This document shows, one piece after another, positions 1 to 6,866 of a stretch of 64,000 bases of DNA. The first letter of the stretch is position 1; every line of letters begins with the position of its first letter. The DNA is from Candidatus Heimdallarchaeota archaeon (GTDB taxonomy: Archaea > Asgardarchaeota > Heimdallarchaeia > Hodarchaeales > Hodarchaeaceae), in NCBI GenBank assembly GCA_011364965.1, contig RDOB01000006.1, positions 116,244-180,243 of the forward strand, given 5' to 3'. A program made the translations under genes and the position numbers. The notes beneath the pieces were generated by a model. It did not search any database and was not told where the DNA came from. It saw only the letters and a program-made list of their open reading frames with translations.

Positions 1-989
1 AAAATTACCCATCGAAGGCTTGATTGCATTTTAAGTCCGTATAAATAGGTAAAAACAACCATAAATATGAATCCTGACAAGAACATGGGCCACATATCTG
101 AACTTCCTAACATGAGGGTGTTATTAATGGCTACTGCAACTGCATGAACACCAACAAATCCTTCAAGTAAAATAATCCACTTCCGATTGAAATGAAAATT
201 AGTATAAGATAAAGAAACTTGAATGAACAATAAGAACATGTAGAAAAATCCAGTAAGTAATTGGGGGTCATTATCCATCGGATGGAACCAAAATGTATAT
301 ACTAAAGCCCAAGAAAAAACATACATGTGTAATTTCATAAAAACGTTAGCAACTTCTCGTGTAATTGGTTTACCAGCTTTTTTGCCAAGGATTATCCCTC
401 GTTGTCTATTCTGCATGATTAAGAGAAAAACTAACATTAAGATGACTGACCCTTGGGATGTCCAAATAGGTACATCTTGGGCTAATCCATCATACCAGAT
501 ATGAGTCTGTAATAAGTGGAGATATATGAATATTCCATTTATAAGTAAGGCAATCCAATTGTAGGTAGTAAGACCAAAGCGTGATTGTTCTCTCAATTGC
601 GTTATATGTTTTTGAGCCCAGTAGATAAGAATCCAAAATGAAACTTGATGACTAAAATAAAACAACCAAACAATAATTTGCGAGGTTATATCTGGAACTG
701 GAAGTTGCCAATAGTACCACGTTGGCCCCAAATCTGGCCCCAATTCAAATCGTCGTAATAAAGGCCCTAATATCCAAATCAGAGCAATGAAAAGTACACT
801 GAATATTAAAGTAATAATAAAGGTATATTTTGGCATGTTTGAAGAACTTTTAACTGTAGAATCATTAAAAGACTGAATTCTCTTCTTTTCTTTCTTCTGT
901 AAGATAAATAATCCAAAGAAGGATATAACACTAAATAAAATAGTCGTTCCTAATATAATAATCATCTCTGAAGTTAAATCATTTGACAT
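1..989 (-). CDS. Uncharacterised polytopic membrane protein, runs off the window edge (3' end missing), downstream of crtI-lycopene cyclase
   Basis: Not in the ORF track; translated by hand from ATG at 989: MSNDLTSEMIIILGTT...WYYWQLP...SHQVSFW...YLHLLQTHIWYDGLAQDVPIWTSQGSVILML...LHMYVFSWALVYTFWFHPM...GVHAVAV...MWPMFLSGF. Open through position 3, many hydrophobic helices, 28 bp after the cyclase stop. Confidence 0.85.
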   Translation of the reverse strand, partial: MSNDLTSEMIIILGTTILFSVISFFGLFILQKKEKKRIQSFNDSTVKSSSNMPKYTFIITLIFSVLFIALIWILGPLLRRFELGPDLGPTWYYWQLPVPDITSQIIVWLFYFSHQVSFWILIYWAQKHITQLREQSRFGLTTYNWIALLINGIFIYLHLLQTHIWYDGLAQDVPIWTSQGSVILMLVFLLIMQNRQRGIILGKKAGKPITREVANVFMKLHMYVFSWALVYTFWFHPMDNDPQLLTGFFYMFLLFIQVSLSYTNFHFNRKWIILLEGFVGVHAVAVAINNTLMLGSSDMWPMFLSGFIFMVVFTYLYGLKMQSSLRWVI

Positions 990-1017
990 TGTCTATTTCA
1001 CCATTTTTGTCCAAAAA

Positions 1018-1818
1018 TTATGATAAAATTCTGTTTAAAGTGTTTTTAAATCTGGTAATGCTTCTTAAATCCGTAATTAATGTTAATCCAAAAATAATTA
1101 ATATATTAGTAATAAGGAAAAAAACGAATTCTTCAATCGGTAAGATTCCTCCTAATAAAGCATTTATTGATGTAGAATTACTAATTATCCAGATTCCCTC
1201 TGAAATTGCTATGGCATCTGCGATAGCCAAGTACAGAGTCGAAATAGATATAGTAAGTATTAATTCTCTTTTGTGAGAATAAAGAATATTGGCACCATAA
1301 GTCAATTGAATAATAATTGGGGGAAATCCCCATAATACTATTAAATTTAAATATATCAAAGGTTCTATATTATTAAAAAAAGCAAATAAAGAAATAAACC
1401 AAATCATCAATAATGGGATAATAGAAAAAATCCTGATTGAGTTTAAACTGGAATTTATCTTCTGAGTAATATCATTTCCTTTTAGCAAAATCCATCCTGA
1501 GATCAGTCCTATCAAAATAGTTTGGACCACAAAAAATGCATATTCCTCTATTGGTACAAAACCGATTAAAATTCCCATTACTTTCTCTGGATCATAATAC
1601 CATACATTATTCTCAACAAGATAATTATCCCAAGGAGTTGTATAAATTAAAGCAACTATAATTAATATTATTATAGCAATAAATATTCTCTTCATCAATA
1701 TTTTTTGCTTTTCTTCAGCTTCTTGATATCTTTTTATGTAAAAAAGAATGGTAATTATTAAAGGAATTCCTATAAAGAGAATAAGGAAAGAAAAGTAAGT
1801 TAGCACTTTTTCTTCCAT
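1018..1818 (-). CDS. crtY: Membrane lycopene cyclase, fused two-repeat CrtYc/Yd type
   Basis: Duplicated motifs YTTPWDNYLV..W.Y..G.VPIEEYAFF and IADAIAI..GIW..G.LPIEEFVFF; 1 bp gap after crtI. Confidence 0.88.
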   Translation of the reverse strand: MEEKVLTYFSFLILFIGIPLIITILFYIKRYQEAEEKQKILMKRIFIAIIILIIVALIYTTPWDNYLVENNVWYYDPEKVMGILIGFVPIEEYAFFVVQTILIGLISGWILLKGNDITQKINSSLNSIRIFSIIPLLMIWFISLFAFFNNIEPLIYLNLIVLWGFPPIIIQLTYGANILYSHKRELILTISISTLYLAIADAIAISEGIWIISNSTSINALLGGILPIEEFVFFLITNILIIFGLTLITDLRSITRFKNTLNRILS

Positions 1819-1819
1819 C

Positions 1820-3385
1820 CTAATTGTGATTTGAATCCAATAGCTTGGAATTCAATATAGATCCATCTCGAGAACCAAGAATTAGATCAGTTGTAACTTT
1901 TGCGCTTGAGACCACGCCAGGCAGTCCTGCTCCAGGATGTGTCCCAGCACCAACGAGATAGAGTCCCTCGATATCCTCAGATTTGTTATGTGGACGAAAC
2001 CAAGCTGATTGGGTAAATATTGGTTCCACGGAAAAACCAGTGCCTTTAAAACTATTATAATCACGTTCAAAATCTAGGGGGGTTAATATTCGTTCTGTAA
2101 CTAAATTCTCTTTCAAACCTGGTAAGTAATGTTCATCCAAAAAATCAAAGATTTTCTGTTTAAAAGGTTCAGCCAACTGTTCCCAGTCAATCTCAGAATC
2201 TTGATGAGGGACTGGAATTAAAATATAAAAGGCTTCATGGCCCTCAGGTGCTAAACTTGGGTCAGTACGAGTAGGAACATGCAGATAACTTGAGAAATCT
2301 TCTGTTAAAACTTTTCTCTTGAAAATATCTTCCAAAAGACCTTTATATCTTGGTCCTAAAATAATCGTATGATGTTTCATATCTGGATATTGTTTTTTTG
2401 TGCCAAAATATATCACTACTAAACCCATTGAATATTTTGCTTTCTTATAGCGCTTATCACTATTCTTCTTGCGATATTTTGCGTCTATCAACCTAGTATA
2501 CGTAAACGCGGGGTCAGCATTGCTTATTACGATTTTTGTAGGATAAAATTCATCTGAGATAGTTCTGACGCCAATAACTTGGTTGTTCTCAACCTCAATT
2601 TTCTTTATTTCACTATTTACTAAAATTTTTCCTCCAAGTTCTTGGAATAATTTTGCTAGCGCATGAACTAGGGCAGTGGTACCACCACGAGCAAACCATA
2701 CGCCAAATTCCTTTTCAAGATATTGAATAAGGCTATAAATAGAAGGAACAGAGTAAGGATTACCCCCAATTAACAAAGGATGAAAACTATACACAATCCG
2801 AAGATTCTCATTTTTTATATATCGGGATACAAAATTATAATTAGACCTGTACGATTGTAATTTGATAAGTGAGGGAGCAACTTTCAACATTGAAGTAAAT
2901 TTATGAAACGGTTCGAAAGATAGTTCTAGAAATCCTTTCTCATAAATTGGTTTGACTGCTTTTAGCATCCGTTTATATCCCTCTACATCATTAGGGTTTA
3001 TTTCTTCAATTTGAGGAACATTTTTTTCTGGAGTCGAATAATCAAAAAACGTACCATCACTAAAGTGTATTCGATAGAATGGCTCAACAGGAATTAAATC
3101 CACATAATCCGCCATTTTTCTACCCGCTAAAGTGAATAAATCTCTAAAGATGTCAGGGACAGTTATCACCGTAGGACCTGCATCAAAAGTAAAACCCTTA
3201 TCATTAAATACCCGAGCACGGCCACCAACTTGATCTAATTTTTCTAGTATTATGACTTTGTACTTCCCTGTTGCTTGGAGTCTAATTCCAGCAGCCAGTC
3301 CCCCAAATCCTGATCCAATGACGATAATCGTAGAAATATTATTATTAAATAAGTCATTAGCTTGTTTTATATAGCCATTATTCAT
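1820..3385 (-). CDS. crtI: Phytoene desaturase (CrtI family)
   Basis: FAD-binding VIGSGFGGLAAG, GFTFDAGPTVIT, C-terminal LYLVGAGTHPGAGLPGVVSSAK. Confidence 0.95.
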   Translation of the reverse strand: MNNGYIKQANDLFNNNISTIIVIGSGFGGLAAGIRLQATGKYKVIILEKLDQVGGRARVFNDKGFTFDAGPTVITVPDIFRDLFTLAGRKMADYVDLIPVEPFYRIHFSDGTFFDYSTPEKNVPQIEEINPNDVEGYKRMLKAVKPIYEKGFLELSFEPFHKFTSMLKVAPSLIKLQSYRSNYNFVSRYIKNENLRIVYSFHPLLIGGNPYSVPSIYSLIQYLEKEFGVWFARGGTTALVHALAKLFQELGGKILVNSEIKKIEVENNQVIGVRTISDEFYPTKIVISNADPAFTYTRLIDAKYRKKNSDKRYKKAKYSMGLVVIYFGTKKQYPDMKHHTIILGPRYKGLLEDIFKRKVLTEDFSSYLHVPTRTDPSLAPEGHEAFYILIPVPHQDSEIDWEQLAEPFKQKIFDFLDEHYLPGLKENLVTERILTPLDFERDYNSFKGTGFSVEPIFTQSAWFRPHNKSEDIEGLYLVGAGTHPGAGLPGVVSSAKVTTDLILGSRDGSILNSKLLDSNHN

Positions 3386-3450
3386 TTCGTTTGCACCTAT
3401 TATTGTATCATTGTTATTTAAAACGATTTCAGCCTTTTTTTTAACTATCT

Positions 3451-3511
3451 TACATTTATCAAAATGTATTTAAATACTTATTTCATGAAGTTAGTTCAAT
3501 TCATGAAATAA
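3451..3511. promoter_or_regulatory. Divergent crtI/crtB control region with palindromic TATA-like element and candidate operator
   Basis: TACATTT-N4-AAATGTA (3451-3468), perfect palindrome GTATTTAAATAC (3466-3477), and perfect 12-bp inverted repeat TTATTTCATGAA-N10-TTCATGAAATAA (3478-3511). Confidence 0.65.
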
Positions 3512-3527
3512 TAATGGAAGAACTAAG

Positions 3528-4472
3528 ATGTATACAACTCAAAAACCAACCGAATGGGGACTTGTTCCTGAAAATATGTTATCTAAATACAATTTACAAG
3601 AGAAAACTCTCGATGAAAGTTACCAGGTTTGTTTGGACTGGATGGCTGAGCATAGTAAATCTTTTTATTTCGCTAGTCGATTTTTACCTGATGATCAACG
3701 AAAAAGTGTTGCTGCTCTTTATGCAGTATGTCGCTTAAGTGATGACATCGTTGATGAAGCTCCCAGAGAAGTCACAATGGATCAAATTAATAGCAAACTT
3801 GATCAATTAAAGGTTACTATTGCTAAGCTCGCTAACGGATACAGTTCTACAAATCCTCTTTTACATGCTTTTGGAGATACGTTAAGAAAGCATAAGATAC
3901 CAGTCAAATATATGCATGAGCTTATTGAAGGCATAAGAATGGATCTTACAAAAAATGAATATTATTCTGAAGACGAACTTGATTTGTATATGTATCGGGT
4001 AGCAAGTACTGTTGGATTGATGATGACTCACATTTTTATCAAAAATCCTCTAGAACGGACTTTAGCAAGAGCAGCAGATCTAGGTAAAGCAATGCAGTTG
4101 ACCAATATTTTAAGAGATGTTAAAGAGGATTTTCTCAAGGGCCGAATATATCTTCCTAAACAGACTCGTGACGATTACCAAGTCACTCTTGACGACCTAA
4201 AGCAAAACAAAGTAAGCAAAAATCTTAAGGCGCTCATTCGATATGAATCTGAAAGAGCCAAGGCCTATTATAAGATCGCTGATCTCGGAATCGAAGAATT
4301 ACCCTCAGCAGGCGCTTATACGGTGAAAGTTGCAGCTATTGTATATGGTGAAATACTTAACGAAATAAAAAGACGTAATTATGAAATTTTAAATCAAAGA
4401 GTTGTTGTTTCTAAAGTCAGAAAGGTGCTTTTGGCTACTAAAGTGCGTTTAGAATATTTACGGAAGCTTTAG
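3528..4472 (+). CDS. crtB: Phytoene synthase
   Basis: HSKSFYFASRFL, LYAVCRLSDDIVDE, YMYRVASTVG, AMQLTNILRDVKED..GRIYLP. Confidence 0.95.
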   Translation: MYTTQKPTEWGLVPENMLSKYNLQEKTLDESYQVCLDWMAEHSKSFYFASRFLPDDQRKSVAALYAVCRLSDDIVDEAPREVTMDQINSKLDQLKVTIAKLANGYSSTNPLLHAFGDTLRKHKIPVKYMHELIEGIRMDLTKNEYYSEDELDLYMYRVASTVGLMMTHIFIKNPLERTLARAADLGKAMQLTNILRDVKEDFLKGRIYLPKQTRDDYQVTLDDLKQNKVSKNLKALIRYESERAKAYYKIADLGIEELPSAGAYTVKVAAIVYGEILNEIKRRNYEILNQRVVVSKVRKVLLATKVRLEYLRKL

Positions 4473-4475
4473 ATA

Positions 4476-4503
4476 GTTCATAAAACAAAAATATGTCATG
4501 AAC
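4476..4503. promoter_or_regulatory. Second copy of the candidate operator, upstream of the B12-binding regulator
   Basis: TTCATAAA (4477-4484)-N10-GTCATGAA (4495-4502): same half-sites and spacing as 3482-3507; outer GTTCAT/ATGAAC inverted repeat. Confidence 0.55.
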
Positions 4504-4529
4504 AACAACAAAAGGAAACGAAATAGCGG

Positions 4530-5483
4530 ATGAACCCATTAATGGAAAAACACACGCTCCCCGCACGAGATCAGATTTTAAGCTATCTGAGAAGAAATCG
4601 CGGAAAAGAAGTCCCTGTTTCTGAACTCGCTTCTAATCTCAATCTTAAACGCTCAACAATATCTAATGCTATAAAAGAACTTAATTTACAAGGTCACATC
4701 GAAATTGAACGTCGATCCCTAAAGCGAGGCCGGTATACTGTTGTTTATTTAACTGGAGATTTAATACAAGAATCCTACGTTCATAAAAATGAAATTATAA
4801 AGATTAAAAGAGAGTCGAAGTATAAAAAACAAGAAAAAAGGGTTCCTCTTTTAGAAATGTCTTTTATTAATGAAATGATTTATATCCTCAAGTCTCCAGA
4901 TTATAATCCAGAAAAATTCTTTGAAAAAATTGAATCTAGGTTTCCTAAAAGTATTGAATTTATTACAGATTTTGTTACACCATTAATGCATGAGGTCGGA
5001 ATAGGATGGACTCAAACCAACCTCTCAACTGCTGAGGAACATATAATCTCTAATCGCGTTGAGGAGCTCATCATTGCAAGAATGCCGATAAATGGGGACA
5101 ATCAGGAGAAAGGAACAATAATTTTAGTACCAGTGGAAGGGGAAAGGCATGTTATCAGTTTATTGTCTCTCGAATATATATTTAGAGATTTAGATTACAA
5201 AATAATTAATCTTGGAAGATCTCTTCCCATTGAATCATTGGTTCAATATATTAAAGATTTACCTGACTTACCTGACTGGATATTTATGTCTATCACACTC
5301 CCTACATATCTTGGAACCATAAGAAGAAATCTGGATTATTTACATGATGTTTTTAAAGACCAAATTCACTTCGCTATAGGAGGACAGGGTATATCAGAGA
5401 ATGAACGAAATTTTTTTCCTCTGGCAGACATTGTTTCCATTACCAAAGAGGATTTATTGAATTTTATTGATATTATGAATTAA
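4530..5483 (+). CDS. Winged-HTH plus cobalamin-binding (CarH/LitR-like) transcriptional regulator
   Basis: N-terminal wHTH (ILSYLRR..VPVSELASNLNLKRSTISNAIKEL..GHIEI); cap domain with W-x9-EH (GWTQTNLSTAEEH); B12 Rossmann domain VEGERHVISL..INLG..SIT..IGGQG. Confidence 0.85.
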   Translation: MNPLMEKHTLPARDQILSYLRRNRGKEVPVSELASNLNLKRSTISNAIKELNLQGHIEIERRSLKRGRYTVVYLTGDLIQESYVHKNEIIKIKRESKYKKQEKRVPLLEMSFINEMIYILKSPDYNPEKFFEKIESRFPKSIEFITDFVTPLMHEVGIGWTQTNLSTAEEHIISNRVEELIIARMPINGDNQEKGTIILVPVEGERHVISLLSLEYIFRDLDYKIINLGRSLPIESLVQYIKDLPDLPDWIFMSITLPTYLGTIRRNLDYLHDVFKDQIHFAIGGQGISENERNFFPLADIVSITKEDLLNFIDIMN

Positions 5484-5522: not shown

Positions 5523-5535
5523 GTGATCGGATCAC
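5523..5535. promoter_or_regulatory. Short palindrome upstream of the MFS gene
   Basis: GTGATC-G-GATCAC, just before AGGGGG and the ATG at 5550; function unknown. Confidence 0.25.
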
Positions 5536-5549
5536 TTAGGGGGAATTTA

Positions 5550-6866
5550 ATGTTAAATTACAATAATAATCGACAATCCAAAGCAATTATGGTCTTATTT
5601 TTAGCAGTTTTCGTCGACCTGCTCGAATTTGGGATTATAATTCCCCTCTTACCATTTTGGGCTCTAAATTTGGGAGCAACACCGTTTATTTATGGTGTTT
5701 TAACCAGCTTATATTCTTTCATGAGTTTTGCTTTAGCTCCTGTTTGGGGAAGGTTTTCAGATAAATATGGAAGACGTCCAGTAATCTTAGCTGGATTGAT
5801 TGGAACTGTGGTAGGTCTTTTGTTGTTAGTACTTGCAGCTTCTGTATTTACTGACTCTTTAATTTTAATTTTCTTTTCACGAATTGTAGGAGGATTTTTC
5901 ACTGCAGCAACCTTACCCACGAGTCAAGCATACATTTCAGATATGACCACAGGGAAAGATCGAGCTAGAGGATTTGGGTTACTTGGTGCAGCTTTTGGTC
6001 TAGGATTCGCAACGGGTCCTGCAATTGGTGGTATTCTAACAGAAATAGGAGGATATTTGTTACCTTCGGTGTTTGCTACTCTTATTGCACTAATTAATTT
6101 ATTCGCTGCAATTAAATACCTTCCCGAATCGTTAACTGATGAAACTAGAAGACAATATCAAAATAGAAAACTAATACTATCCGAAGATGGCAGAAATTCA
6201 ATTAAGAGTATTTTAATAAATAATCCCTTAATAAGCCTAAGTATTTTTCTATTTGCGTTAATCTCTTTTGCATTTTCTAAAATGCAAACAACTTTAGCAT
6301 TATTAGGAGAAATCCGATTTGGATTAAATGAATCACTGACTGGAGCAGTTTTCTTTGTTGTTGGATTAATAGTGGTAATTACTCAAGGAGGTTTAATACG
6401 TCCGCTAACAGGAAGATTTTCTGATTCGGCGCTTTTTACTTTCGGTCTATTCTTCCTTACAATTGGTTTTCTTGGTCTAAGTACAGTTAGATCTCTTACT
6501 GAAATGATCATATGGATTATTCCTTTATCAGTTGGATCATCAATATCAAACCCAACTTTAGGAGCTTTTTTATCGAAAAGGACTCCTTCCAAAAGTTCAG
6601 GAACGATTTTAGGTTTGAATCAAGGAATAGGATCACTTATGCGAGTTATCGGGCCACTAATCGGAACTGCACTTTTTGAGATCAATGAGGCATTTCCATA
6701 TTATCTGGGAGCTGTTGTGTTGTGTGCTGGGTTTGTTTTAGCTTTTAATATATGGTTTAAGTCTAAGAAAGAAATTCGGTACAGTCCATGTATAAATTGC
6801 GGCTTACAATTGCGTGAAGGGACAGCAGCTTGTTCTCAATGCGGAATTTCTAAATCTAACAAATAA
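5550..6866 (+). CDS. MFS transporter (TetA/DHA1-like) with C-terminal zinc ribbon
   Basis: Motif A WGRFSDKYGRRPV, motif C GFATGPAIGG, about 12 TM helices; tail CINCG..CSQCG. ATG 5550 preferred over GTG 5523. Confidence 0.9.
   Translation: MLNYNNNRQSKAIMVLFLAVFVDLLEFGIIIPLLPFWALNLGATPFIYGVLTSLYSFMSFALAPVWGRFSDKYGRRPVILAGLIGTVVGLLLLVLAASVFTDSLILIFFSRIVGGFFTAATLPTSQAYISDMTTGKDRARGFGLLGAAFGLGFATGPAIGGILTEIGGYLLPSVFATLIALINLFAAIKYLPESLTDETRRQYQNRKLILSEDGRNSIKSILINNPLISLSIFLFALISFAFSKMQTTLALLGEIRFGLNESLTGAVFFVVGLIVVITQGGLIRPLTGRFSDSALFTFGLFFLTIGFLGLSTVRSLTEMIIWIIPLSVGSSISNPTLGAFLSKRTPSKSSGTILGLNQGIGSLMRVIGPLIGTALFEINEAFPYYLGAVVLCAGFVLAFNIWFKSKKEIRYSPCINCGLQLREGTAACSQCGISKSNK

Follow-up and report, generated by a model that had tools for sequence, protein, structure and literature searches.

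The window analysed here is a 64,000-nucleotide stretch of contig RDOB01000006.1 (positions 116,244 to 180,243, forward strand) in assembly GCA_011364965.1 of a Candidatus Heimdallarchaeota archaeon, whose genome spans 2.97 Mb, is 87% complete and is placed by GTDB in the lineage Archaea; Asgardarchaeota; Heimdallarchaeia; Hodarchaeales; Hodarchaeaceae. In its first 5,483 positions, crtY and crtI are divergent from crtB, and the next gene after crtB encodes a regulator:

1..989, minus strand: uncharacterised membrane protein, 399 aa in full, continuing 210 bases past the window
1018..1818, minus strand: crtY, two-domain membrane lycopene cyclase, 266 aa (TIGR03462, matched in two stretches)
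1820..3385, minus strand: crtI, phytoene desaturase, 521 aa (TIGR02734, 606 against a cut-off of 238)
3528..4472, plus strand: crtB, phytoene synthase family, 314 aa (SQS_PSY, E 3e-74; both Asp-rich motifs)
4542..5483, plus strand: regulator gene, 313 aa, with a winged helix, a flexible linker and a cobalamin-binding domain

An earlier note, made from the sequence alone, had placed crtI, a lycopene cyclase and a membrane gene opposite crtB on a probable Asgard contig without a GGPP synthase in the cluster. Gene calls and profile matches agree with that layout throughout, and two polyprenyl synthases are encoded on another contig. The same-genus relatives are Hodarchaeota, Heimdallarchaeota and other Asgard archaea, and a bacterial contaminant contig was rejected; a viral origin was also rejected, with no relative among viral contigs, and a plasmid search with CrtB returned only distant matches (<40% identity) among the best ten. 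CrtI has a match of known structure in the phytoene dehydrogenase 4DGK (E 5e-158), and CrtY scores 120 bits on TIGR03462 against a cut-off of 39. The product of crtB is assigned by context, because it scores under the cut-off of every NCBIfam equivalog.

The membrane protein has no Pfam match; its homologues number more than 1,100 and come from both archaea and bacteria. Its gene was not seen in the fetched crt loci of 15 relatives, several of which end at contig ends, and a role as a fixed tailoring enzyme is unsupported for a gene not seen in these loci and common elsewhere; it is an accessory gene and no fixed component of the crt cluster. The crtI run extends beyond the window edge, with a 94-bp gap before uvsE, into uvsE, a photolyase gene (phr) and msrA, a coupling that is lineage-specific. 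Besides msrA, the neighbourhood has genes for a TspO-family protein and a Rieske oxygenase.

The regulator's winged helix and cobalamin domain

Residue numbers below follow the 313-aa protein that starts at the ATG at 4542, the position at which relatives start; an alternative ATG at 4530 would give 317 aa. The following elements were located within the gene:

4542..4766, plus strand: winged-helix DNA-binding domain, aa 1-75, MarR/ArsR/Lrs14-like (Pfam, structure model and Foldseek)
4998..5042, plus strand: GxxW...EH adenosyl-capping motif (G153, W156, E166, H167), in 44/44 family members
5139..5159, plus strand: G-E-x-H lower-ligand motif (H203) with Ser at H+3; G-E-x-H itself occupies 5139-5150
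5214..5228, plus strand: GxxxP motif (G225-P229), lacking the Asp that pairs with Arg in the salt bridge of CarH dimers

The DNA-binding head matches HTH_11 (3e-8) and MarR_2 (3e-6) in Pfam, where no MerR family is found for the regulator at E<0.1. It is modelled with a pLDDT of 88 as three helices and a two-strand wing, and the Foldseek matches listed are ArsR, MarR, PadR and archaeal winged helices at E ~1e-3, none of them MerR. Profile scan, structure model and fold matches thus all support the inference in the earlier note of a non-MerR, archaeal-style head. Such a head is not unique in itself, because Cro/XRE helix-turn-helix heads occur in 33 of 81 near relatives and a thaumarchaeal head in about 20.

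The second domain carries motifs known from adenosylcobalamin (AdoCbl) photosensors. The four published light-response motifs (GxxW, EH, GxxH and GxxxP; PMC11796333) are all present, and by pattern match they occur in 44, 44, 42 and 34 of the 44 family members. The W-x9-EH signature, which tells photoactive CarH from the B12-independent CarA (PMC9304148), lies at 5007-5042, and the structure model includes the helical cap. The lower-ligand motif, G-[ED]-x-H across the family, aligns with the same motif of Thermus thermophilus CarH, and the CarH/LitR Rossmann pattern D/E-x-H-x2-G/P ... S-x-T ... GG is represented by E201-x-H203, S250-x-T252 and G280-G281. Both signatures had been read from the letters before, with the remark that Ser replaces the usual Gly after H203, and both hold at W156, E166, H167 and H203. 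The replacement is harmless as evidence, since light-validated proteins carry Ser (8J2Y), Pro (8J2W) or Ala (8JBS) at the same HxxG position. Photocobilins, CarH and AerR head the fold matches to the domain, among which a single corrinoid protein ranks second. A methyltransferase corrinoid protein (MtbC, MtaC or MetH, with DxHxxG and with neither W-x9-EH nor a DNA-binding head) was rejected as an identity for the regulator, all such models falling far under their cut-offs.

The regulator is also predicted to dimerise. The dimer model scores 0.72, against 0.00 for the best control. Of 30 solved pairs, 20 attain the mark set for this measure, as does 1 of 23 single chains; contacts agree between runs to at least 92%, with pLDDT of at least 79. 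In the modelled interface, cap residues 162-168 pack head-to-tail against partner residues 222-236. These models contain no ligand and may reflect likeness to solved CarH and photocobilin dimers. The Arg-Asp salt bridge of the CarH dimer is not kept in the family (Arg in 18/42 members, the partner Asp in 1/39), and no member (0/44) has an equivalent of His132, the His following the Trp that forms the bis-His light state. With both features absent, the tetramer switch of T. thermophilus CarH cannot be transferred to this regulator.

Relatives and predicted operators

Named full-length homologues of the regulator come almost entirely from Asgard archaea, and the database name 'MtbC1' that homologues carry is at odds with their architecture. 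As the earlier note's reading would require, these homologues are tied to crtB and crtI: crtB lies directly upstream of the regulator gene in 21 of 22 relatives examined, and across 61 genomes the two genes share the same genomes, two contig breaks excepted. In the locus of the single crt-less homologue (15 kb), the only perfect palindrome of the kind described below lies 36 bp before the homologue's own start. The tree is a quick version only and does not fix a donor.

Three putative control elements were identified around crtB:

3459..3476, plus strand: predicted BRE and TATA box of crtB, with function inferred from the archaeal promoter consensus
3482..3507, no strand assigned: predicted main operator, a TTCATGAA-N10-TTCATGAA tandem palindrome and the only perfect copy in the 2.97-Mb genome
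4477..4502, no strand assigned: predicted second, weaker operator before the regulator gene, with one mismatch per palindrome and the same 10-bp spacing

The TATA sequence (3467-3476) is itself palindromic, and the BRE and TATA elements are kept in closer relatives. The predicted main operator lies 5-31 bp past the TATA box, spans the expected start site and sits within a perfect 12-bp inverted repeat at 3478-3511. Its assignment to the regulator is a prediction without binding data. Comparative counts point to the same spacer: 20 crtI-crtB spacers (3,023 bp) hold 38 perfect palindromes, against 0.11 expected by shuffling, a count drawn from kin that are not independent, and 11 of the 12 perfect tandems in 61 genomes fall there, with 0 for a reversed control. 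The second site in genome G010 lies within coding sequence. Tandems before the regulator gene recur in three relatives (G019, G008 and G011), and single sites stand there in several others. A sigma-70 promoter scan remained at chance level, with a model unsuited to archaea.

A wider regulon is rejected for now. The source genome holds a single perfect tandem, no intergenic operator site accompanies uvsE-phr cassettes or second crtB copies elsewhere in relatives, and no operator was found upstream of photolyase cassettes elsewhere in seven related genomes.

Signal and mode of action

A CarH-like sensor, an archaeal-style head and a conserved palindrome on a pigment promoter together probably constitute an undescribed archaeal light switch, for which there are no bench data. 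We consider it likely that an AdoCbl-bound dimer represses carotenoid synthesis in the dark and is released by light; AdoCbl binding and the light response are both inferred.

It is also possible, if unlikely, that the regulator binds cobalamin and the same operators and responds to redox state, oxygen or the form of cobalamin (adenosyl or hydroxo) instead of light, in which case the carotenoids would belong to an oxidative-stress or membrane response in sediment. The missing bis-His ligand fits such a signal, but validated photoreceptors also lack the His132 equivalent, which is not universal among them (PMC11796333). AerR, a close fold match, binds hydroxocobalamin, whereas the adenosyl-capping Trp, Glu and His are kept in 44/44 members here. 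The neighbouring msrA, TspO-family and Rieske oxygenase genes would suit an oxygen or redox cue, against which photolyase, a light-requiring enzyme, adjoins the crt cluster in three genomes and in two arrangements. The motif alone is no proof of light sensing, because clostridial XRE fusions and thaumarchaeal proteins carry it too; related domains occur in anaerobic Clostridiales, and the thaumarchaeal loci read have no crt genes.

It is quite improbable that the B12 fold is a relic in a repressor that needs no cobalamin, as is the case for CarA and class II LitR, and that is freed by a partner protein or by a lipid or carotenoid ligand. The domain does score under its Pfam cut-offs (27.6 against 32.1, and 17.2 against 23), and only 6 of 42 members retain the HxxG Gly; yet CarA lacks the Trp, while here Trp, Glu and His are universal and the lower-ligand motif is kept in 42 of 44 members. 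Cobalamin supply is similarly divided: no marker of uptake or synthesis was found in the 87% complete genome (CobS, BtuF-type and ECF components were sought), nor was PduO, but a CobA/BtuR adenosyltransferase is encoded beside the AdoCbl enzyme methylmalonyl-CoA mutase. No conserved antirepressor candidate adjoins the gene across loci.

Many archaeal winged-helix regulators are activators and a few distant members have some sites well upstream of crtB, but it is very improbable that the protein responds to light as an activator, or as a dual regulator, by recruiting TBP/TFB. Both palindromes in closer relatives lie downstream of the TATA box and across the expected start, a repressor's position, and if the AdoCbl-bound form activated in the dark, pigment production would be mistimed.

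In the favoured mechanism of dark repression and release by light, CobA/BtuR would adenosylate salvaged cobalamin, and AdoCbl would be seated with the helical cap (W156, E166, H167) on one side and the Rossmann domain (H203) on the other. Head-to-tail dimers formed in the dark would place their winged helices on the TTCATGAA palindromes, probably one dimer to each palindrome, with cooperation between the two sites. Occupancy would block the crtB start region and would also dampen the regulator gene itself and the crtI promoter on the opposite strand. Light would break the Co-C bond, shift the cap and loosen the oligomer without a bis-His lock, releasing the DNA. CrtB, CrtI and CrtY could then convert GGPP to a cyclic C40 carotenoid, gamma- or beta-carotene, that would protect against photo-oxidation, and the same switch may extend to uvsE, photolyase and msrA downstream of crtI in the source genome. 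Type-1 rhodopsin was not found in 61 genomes, nor Brp/Blh or heliorhodopsin in the source genome; these results count only as 'not found', because the search controls also gave no match.

Relation to known systems and meaning

The regulator shares with CarH/LitR of T. thermophilus, Myxococcus xanthus and Bacillus megaterium (5C8D, 5C8E) a helical cap and Rossmann cobalamin domain, W-x9-EH and E-x-H, adjacency to crtB, an operator over the promoter and a predicted head-to-tail dimer. Those proteins have a MerR head (RxWERRY) in place of the winged helix and bind tandem 11-bp direct repeats (nnnnTnnACAn; PMC9304148), whereas the Asgard sites are 8-bp palindromes 18-19 bp apart at a TATA-type promoter, and the Asgard protein lacks His132 and the salt-bridge Asp. 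On the CarH/LitR equivalog NF052513 it scores 30.4 bits against a cut-off of 400. It works like CarH, a light function that is inferred, but stands outside CarH membership, having no MerR head, a different operator and no His132.

In both sequence and fold, the B12 domain is best matched by the photocobilins SasPcob and AbPcob (8J2W, 8J2X, 8J2Y) and CtMerR (8JBS), which are light-validated, likewise have no His132 equivalent and show Pro, Ser or Ala at the HxxG site. Their partner modules are a biliverdin-binding globin, a cyclase or a MerR head, and no archaeal winged-helix regulator is among them. AerR of Rhodobacter capsulatus (7TE2) is built on the same two-part cobalamin fold, with a TM of 0.70 on the target, and controls photosystem genes. 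It acts via a separate CrtJ and was solved with hydroxocobalamin, in contrast to the fused DNA-binding head found here. CrtR of Corynebacterium glutamicum has, to our knowledge, no cobalamin domain. Its description (PMC6739363) presents this MarR-type, winged-helix protein as controlling a crt operon whose output is induced by light and places it outside the B12-based CarH/LitR family.

Carotenoid genes are not new to the lineage: crtB/crtI or a lycopene pathway have been reported in Heimdallarchaeia (PMC11193907; PMC12137139), although B12, cobalamin and regulator are absent from the main texts of both papers, and the Kariarchaeum pelagium set provides linear carotenoids only, whereas the source cluster has a cyclase. 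The B12 photoreceptors described in the literature consulted are bacterial, and the word archaea is absent from the main texts of PMC11796333 and PMC10979010. The earlier note knew of no characterised example, and a literature search likewise found no description of such an archaeal winged-helix B12 regulator.

On balance we lean slightly towards regarding this protein as the first archaeal coenzyme-B12 photoreceptor to control transcription directly, blocking a TATA/TFB promoter through palindromes and without a bis-His lock, with a sensor that may share its origin with an undescribed thaumarchaeal family. Predictions place Heimdallarchaeia, Hodarchaeales among them, closest to eukaryotes; these cells are mostly sediment-dwelling, and their ecological use of light is described as unclear (PMC11193907). 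The predicted ligand, operator and target genes make light-controlled expression in this lineage testable at the bench without culture and independently of rhodopsin. If the proposal is true, it would provide a compact winged-helix repressor that is switched by light and recognises an 8-bp site; if the shared thaumarchaeal origin is also true, B12-based light sensing would be ancient among archaea rather than restricted to bacteria.

The carotenoid cluster of the window

Gene content and order are as claimed in the earlier note:

Features of the cluster (window coordinates)
1-989, minus strand: membrane gene, extending beyond the window edge
1018-1818, minus: crtY, two domains, passing TIGR03462
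1820-3385, minus: crtI (TIGR02734, 606 bits vs cut-off 238; 4DGK, E 5e-158)
142-bp spacer between the divergent crtI and crtB
3467-3476: predicted TATA box, 5 bp before the TTCATGAA pair
3482-3489 and 3500-3507: TTCATGAA pair within a perfect 12-bp inverted repeat in the spacer
3528-4472, plus: crtB (SQS_PSY, E 3e-74)
4477-4502: weaker palindrome pair before the regulator gene, kept in three close relatives
4542-5483, plus: regulator gene, downstream of crtB

4DGK is a solved phytoene dehydrogenase structure. CrtB reaches the cut-off of no NCBIfam equivalog. A cyclic C40 carotenoid is the likely product, an inference made because the cluster contains a cyclase. Two polyprenyl synthases are encoded elsewhere in the genome, which fits the proposed use of the general GGPP pool. 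In several relatives a second copy of crtB or crtI occurs with no operator pair (L030:11415-13917, L031:442-1962, L035:1-1097, L071 and L072). Loci L062 and L074 also hold genes for a glycosyltransferase, a hydrolase and a desaturase-like protein, which hints at modified carotenoids.

The regulator as a predicted cobalamin-binding protein

Residues 1-75 of the 313-aa regulator form a winged helix (Pfam HTH_11 and MarR_2; weakly, NCBIfam ArsR, Sta1 and Lrs14), and MerR is not among the Pfam and NCBIfam matches of this head. The modeled winged helix (pLDDT 88) matches ArsR, MarR, PadR and archaeal winged-helix folds at E about 1e-3; profile scan and structure model support the non-MerR, archaeal-style head that had been proposed. 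A disordered linker (residues 88-103), a helical cap and a Rossmann domain follow in the model, and the best fold matches of cap and Rossmann domain are photocobilins, a corrinoid protein, CarH and AerR.

A published light-response signature (PMC11796333) is complete in the regulator, as G153xxW156 (44/44 family members), E166-H167 (44/44), G200xxH203 (42/44) and G225xxxP229 (34/44). The serine that the earlier note had flagged at a usual glycine position has counterparts in light-validated proteins, where Ser, Pro and Ala all occur. Two residues of T. thermophilus CarH are absent, the His after the Trp (0/44 members) and the dimer salt-bridge Asp (1/39); validated photoreceptors can also lack this His (PMC11796333). 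A ligand-free homodimer model passed with a score of 0.72 vs 0.00 for the best control, possibly owing to likeness to solved dimers; of the solved pairs 20 of 30 attain the pass mark, as does 1 of 23 single chains. At least 92% of its contacts are common to runs, pLDDT is at least 79, and one chain's cap packs against the partner's Rossmann domain. A protein of this kind could instead sense redox state or the form of its cobalamin, a reading that we regard as unlikely.

The cell should make AdoCbl, since a CobA/BtuR adenosyltransferase gene adjoins both methylmalonyl-CoA mutase subunits in one run near a ribosomal-protein cluster (L053:7755-10462; G000:C13:215754-218461). The genome, 87% complete, yielded no CobS, BtuF-type or ECF component. 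We give little credence to repression independent of B12.

Predicted operator and gene linkage

The tandem TTCATGAA pair is the predicted main operator. The genome has no other perfect pair at any spacing between 4 and 19; across 61 genomes there are 12, 11 in the crtI-crtB spacer and one within a gene, and a reversed control gave none. Perfect single copies number 38 in 20 crtI-crtB spacers (3,023 bp) vs 0.11 in shuffles, the kin not being independent. Several other relatives have single sites before the regulator gene. One family member (L061:4259-5194), whose contig has 48% GC, lacks nearby crt genes and keeps, 36 bp ahead of the regulator start, the sole perfect copy in its 15-kb locus; this links the motif to the regulator rather than to crt promoters in themselves. 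Where spacers are long, separate sites lie close to crtI and to crtB, which suggests, in the absence of binding data, control of both directions. Most members have the palindromes 10-11 bp apart and distant ones have them further apart, from which we infer, on sequence alone, that the single palindrome is probably the unit.

Linkage to crt genes holds in relatives: crtB lies immediately upstream of the regulator in 15 related genomes, with divergent crtI in 14 (the remaining contig stops within crtB), and six more distant members share the crtB-regulator order. The two genes co-occur in 16 of 61 genomes, both exceptions being contig breaks.

That the regulator is an activator seems to us very improbable. 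We favor, with some confidence, a light-released repressor, a reading built on observed architecture, motifs, linkage and site position and, for binding, light response and repression, on analogy with CarH and the photocobilins. In the dark, AdoCbl-bound regulator would oligomerise and occupy the palindromes that span the crtB start, with a damping effect on crtI and on its own gene as well; on illumination the Co-C bond would be cleaved and the regulator would leave the DNA.

The minus-strand run continues left of the window after crtY (membrane gene to msrA; L001:10933-16989, G000:C15:111176-117232) in the order membrane gene, PNPOx-like, Rieske oxygenase, 139-aa membrane protein, UvsE (a UV endonuclease), photolyase and MsrA, with successive gaps of 28, 16, 11, -1, 94, 0 and 6 bp. 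A TspO-family gene lies nearby. The related genome G019 has the same run minus the membrane gene and msrA, and in G014 photolyase is downstream of the regulator. Seven other genomes of this genus have the uvsE-phr cassette elsewhere, without the operator. The crt-uvsE-phr link speaks for a light theme without amounting to a conserved regulon.

PNPOx-like, 139-aa, TspO and SDR genes recur next to crt or phr genes in relatives. The 399-aa membrane protein (window 1-989; L001:15790-16989) carries the automatic name 'serine active site containing 1'; its family is large, has no Pfam model and is common in Thorarchaeia and Chloroflexota. At 5523-6866 of the window, an MFS transporter bearing a C-terminal zinc ribbon comes next after the regulator here, in G019 and in G012, is close to it in G017, and may be co-transcribed with it.

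Relation to known systems and spread of the family

The presumed mode of working is, by analogy, that of CarH. Unlike CarH, the regulator lacks a MerR head and His132 and has a different operator; at 30 bits vs a cut-off of 400 it is not a CarH member. A non-MerR head by itself is not new, because 33 of the 81 nearest B12-domain relatives carry a Cro/XRE helix-turn-helix (13 carry MerR) and about 20 more of them, of thaumarchaeal type, bear a third kind of head. The Cro/XRE fusions to the same B12 domain include P0068, P0072, P0073 and about 30 others (alignment A2); the one checked is from Clostridiales/Bacillota.

The thaumarchaeal family (Nitrososphaeraceae, Nitrosocaldus, Nitrososphaerales; P0053, P0055, P0067, P0081; L055:398-1246, L076:7001-7921, L078:2589-3479) has the same W-x9-EH B12 domain, with an N-terminal head lacking a Pfam match. 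The loci read contain no crt genes and no TTCATGAA before the B12-domain gene, which in Nitrosocaldus comes after a pyrimidine-dimer glycosylase gene. The family is possibly a second archaeal B12 sensor; no published description of it was found. A quick tree places Asgard and thaumarchaeal B12 domains in one 51-row group (SH-aLRT 95) that leaves out the MerR and XRE fusions and takes in six unassigned proteins outside both families; we treat this grouping as a lead only. Carotenoid genes have already been reported in Heimdallarchaeia (PMC11193907, PMC12137139), and the literature searched, with most subscription papers outside coverage, yielded no archaeal B12 photoreceptor.

Named full-length homologues come from records labeled Hodarchaeales, Heimdallarchaeota, Kariarchaeaceae and other Asgard names, bar one labeled Methanobacteriota, bearing out an archaeal (Asgard) origin of the contig. 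Within the phylum, the winged-helix profile has matches in 16 of the 301 genomes; 14 of these belong to this genus and two to a single further family of the class. Among 1.84 billion representatives, just 17 proteins match the regulator at E < 1e-30, and matches beyond these span mainly the B12 domain. P0018 and P0024 have an insert in the linker, and P0028, P0040 and P0041 an extra N-terminal domain; in both subgroups this is an apparent second winged-helix-like segment of 60-70 aa, gained separately at different positions. The regulator family is small and, in the quick tree (SH-aLRT 100), a single clade. The module is real and conserved, and, its light response being inferred, it is probably light-switched.
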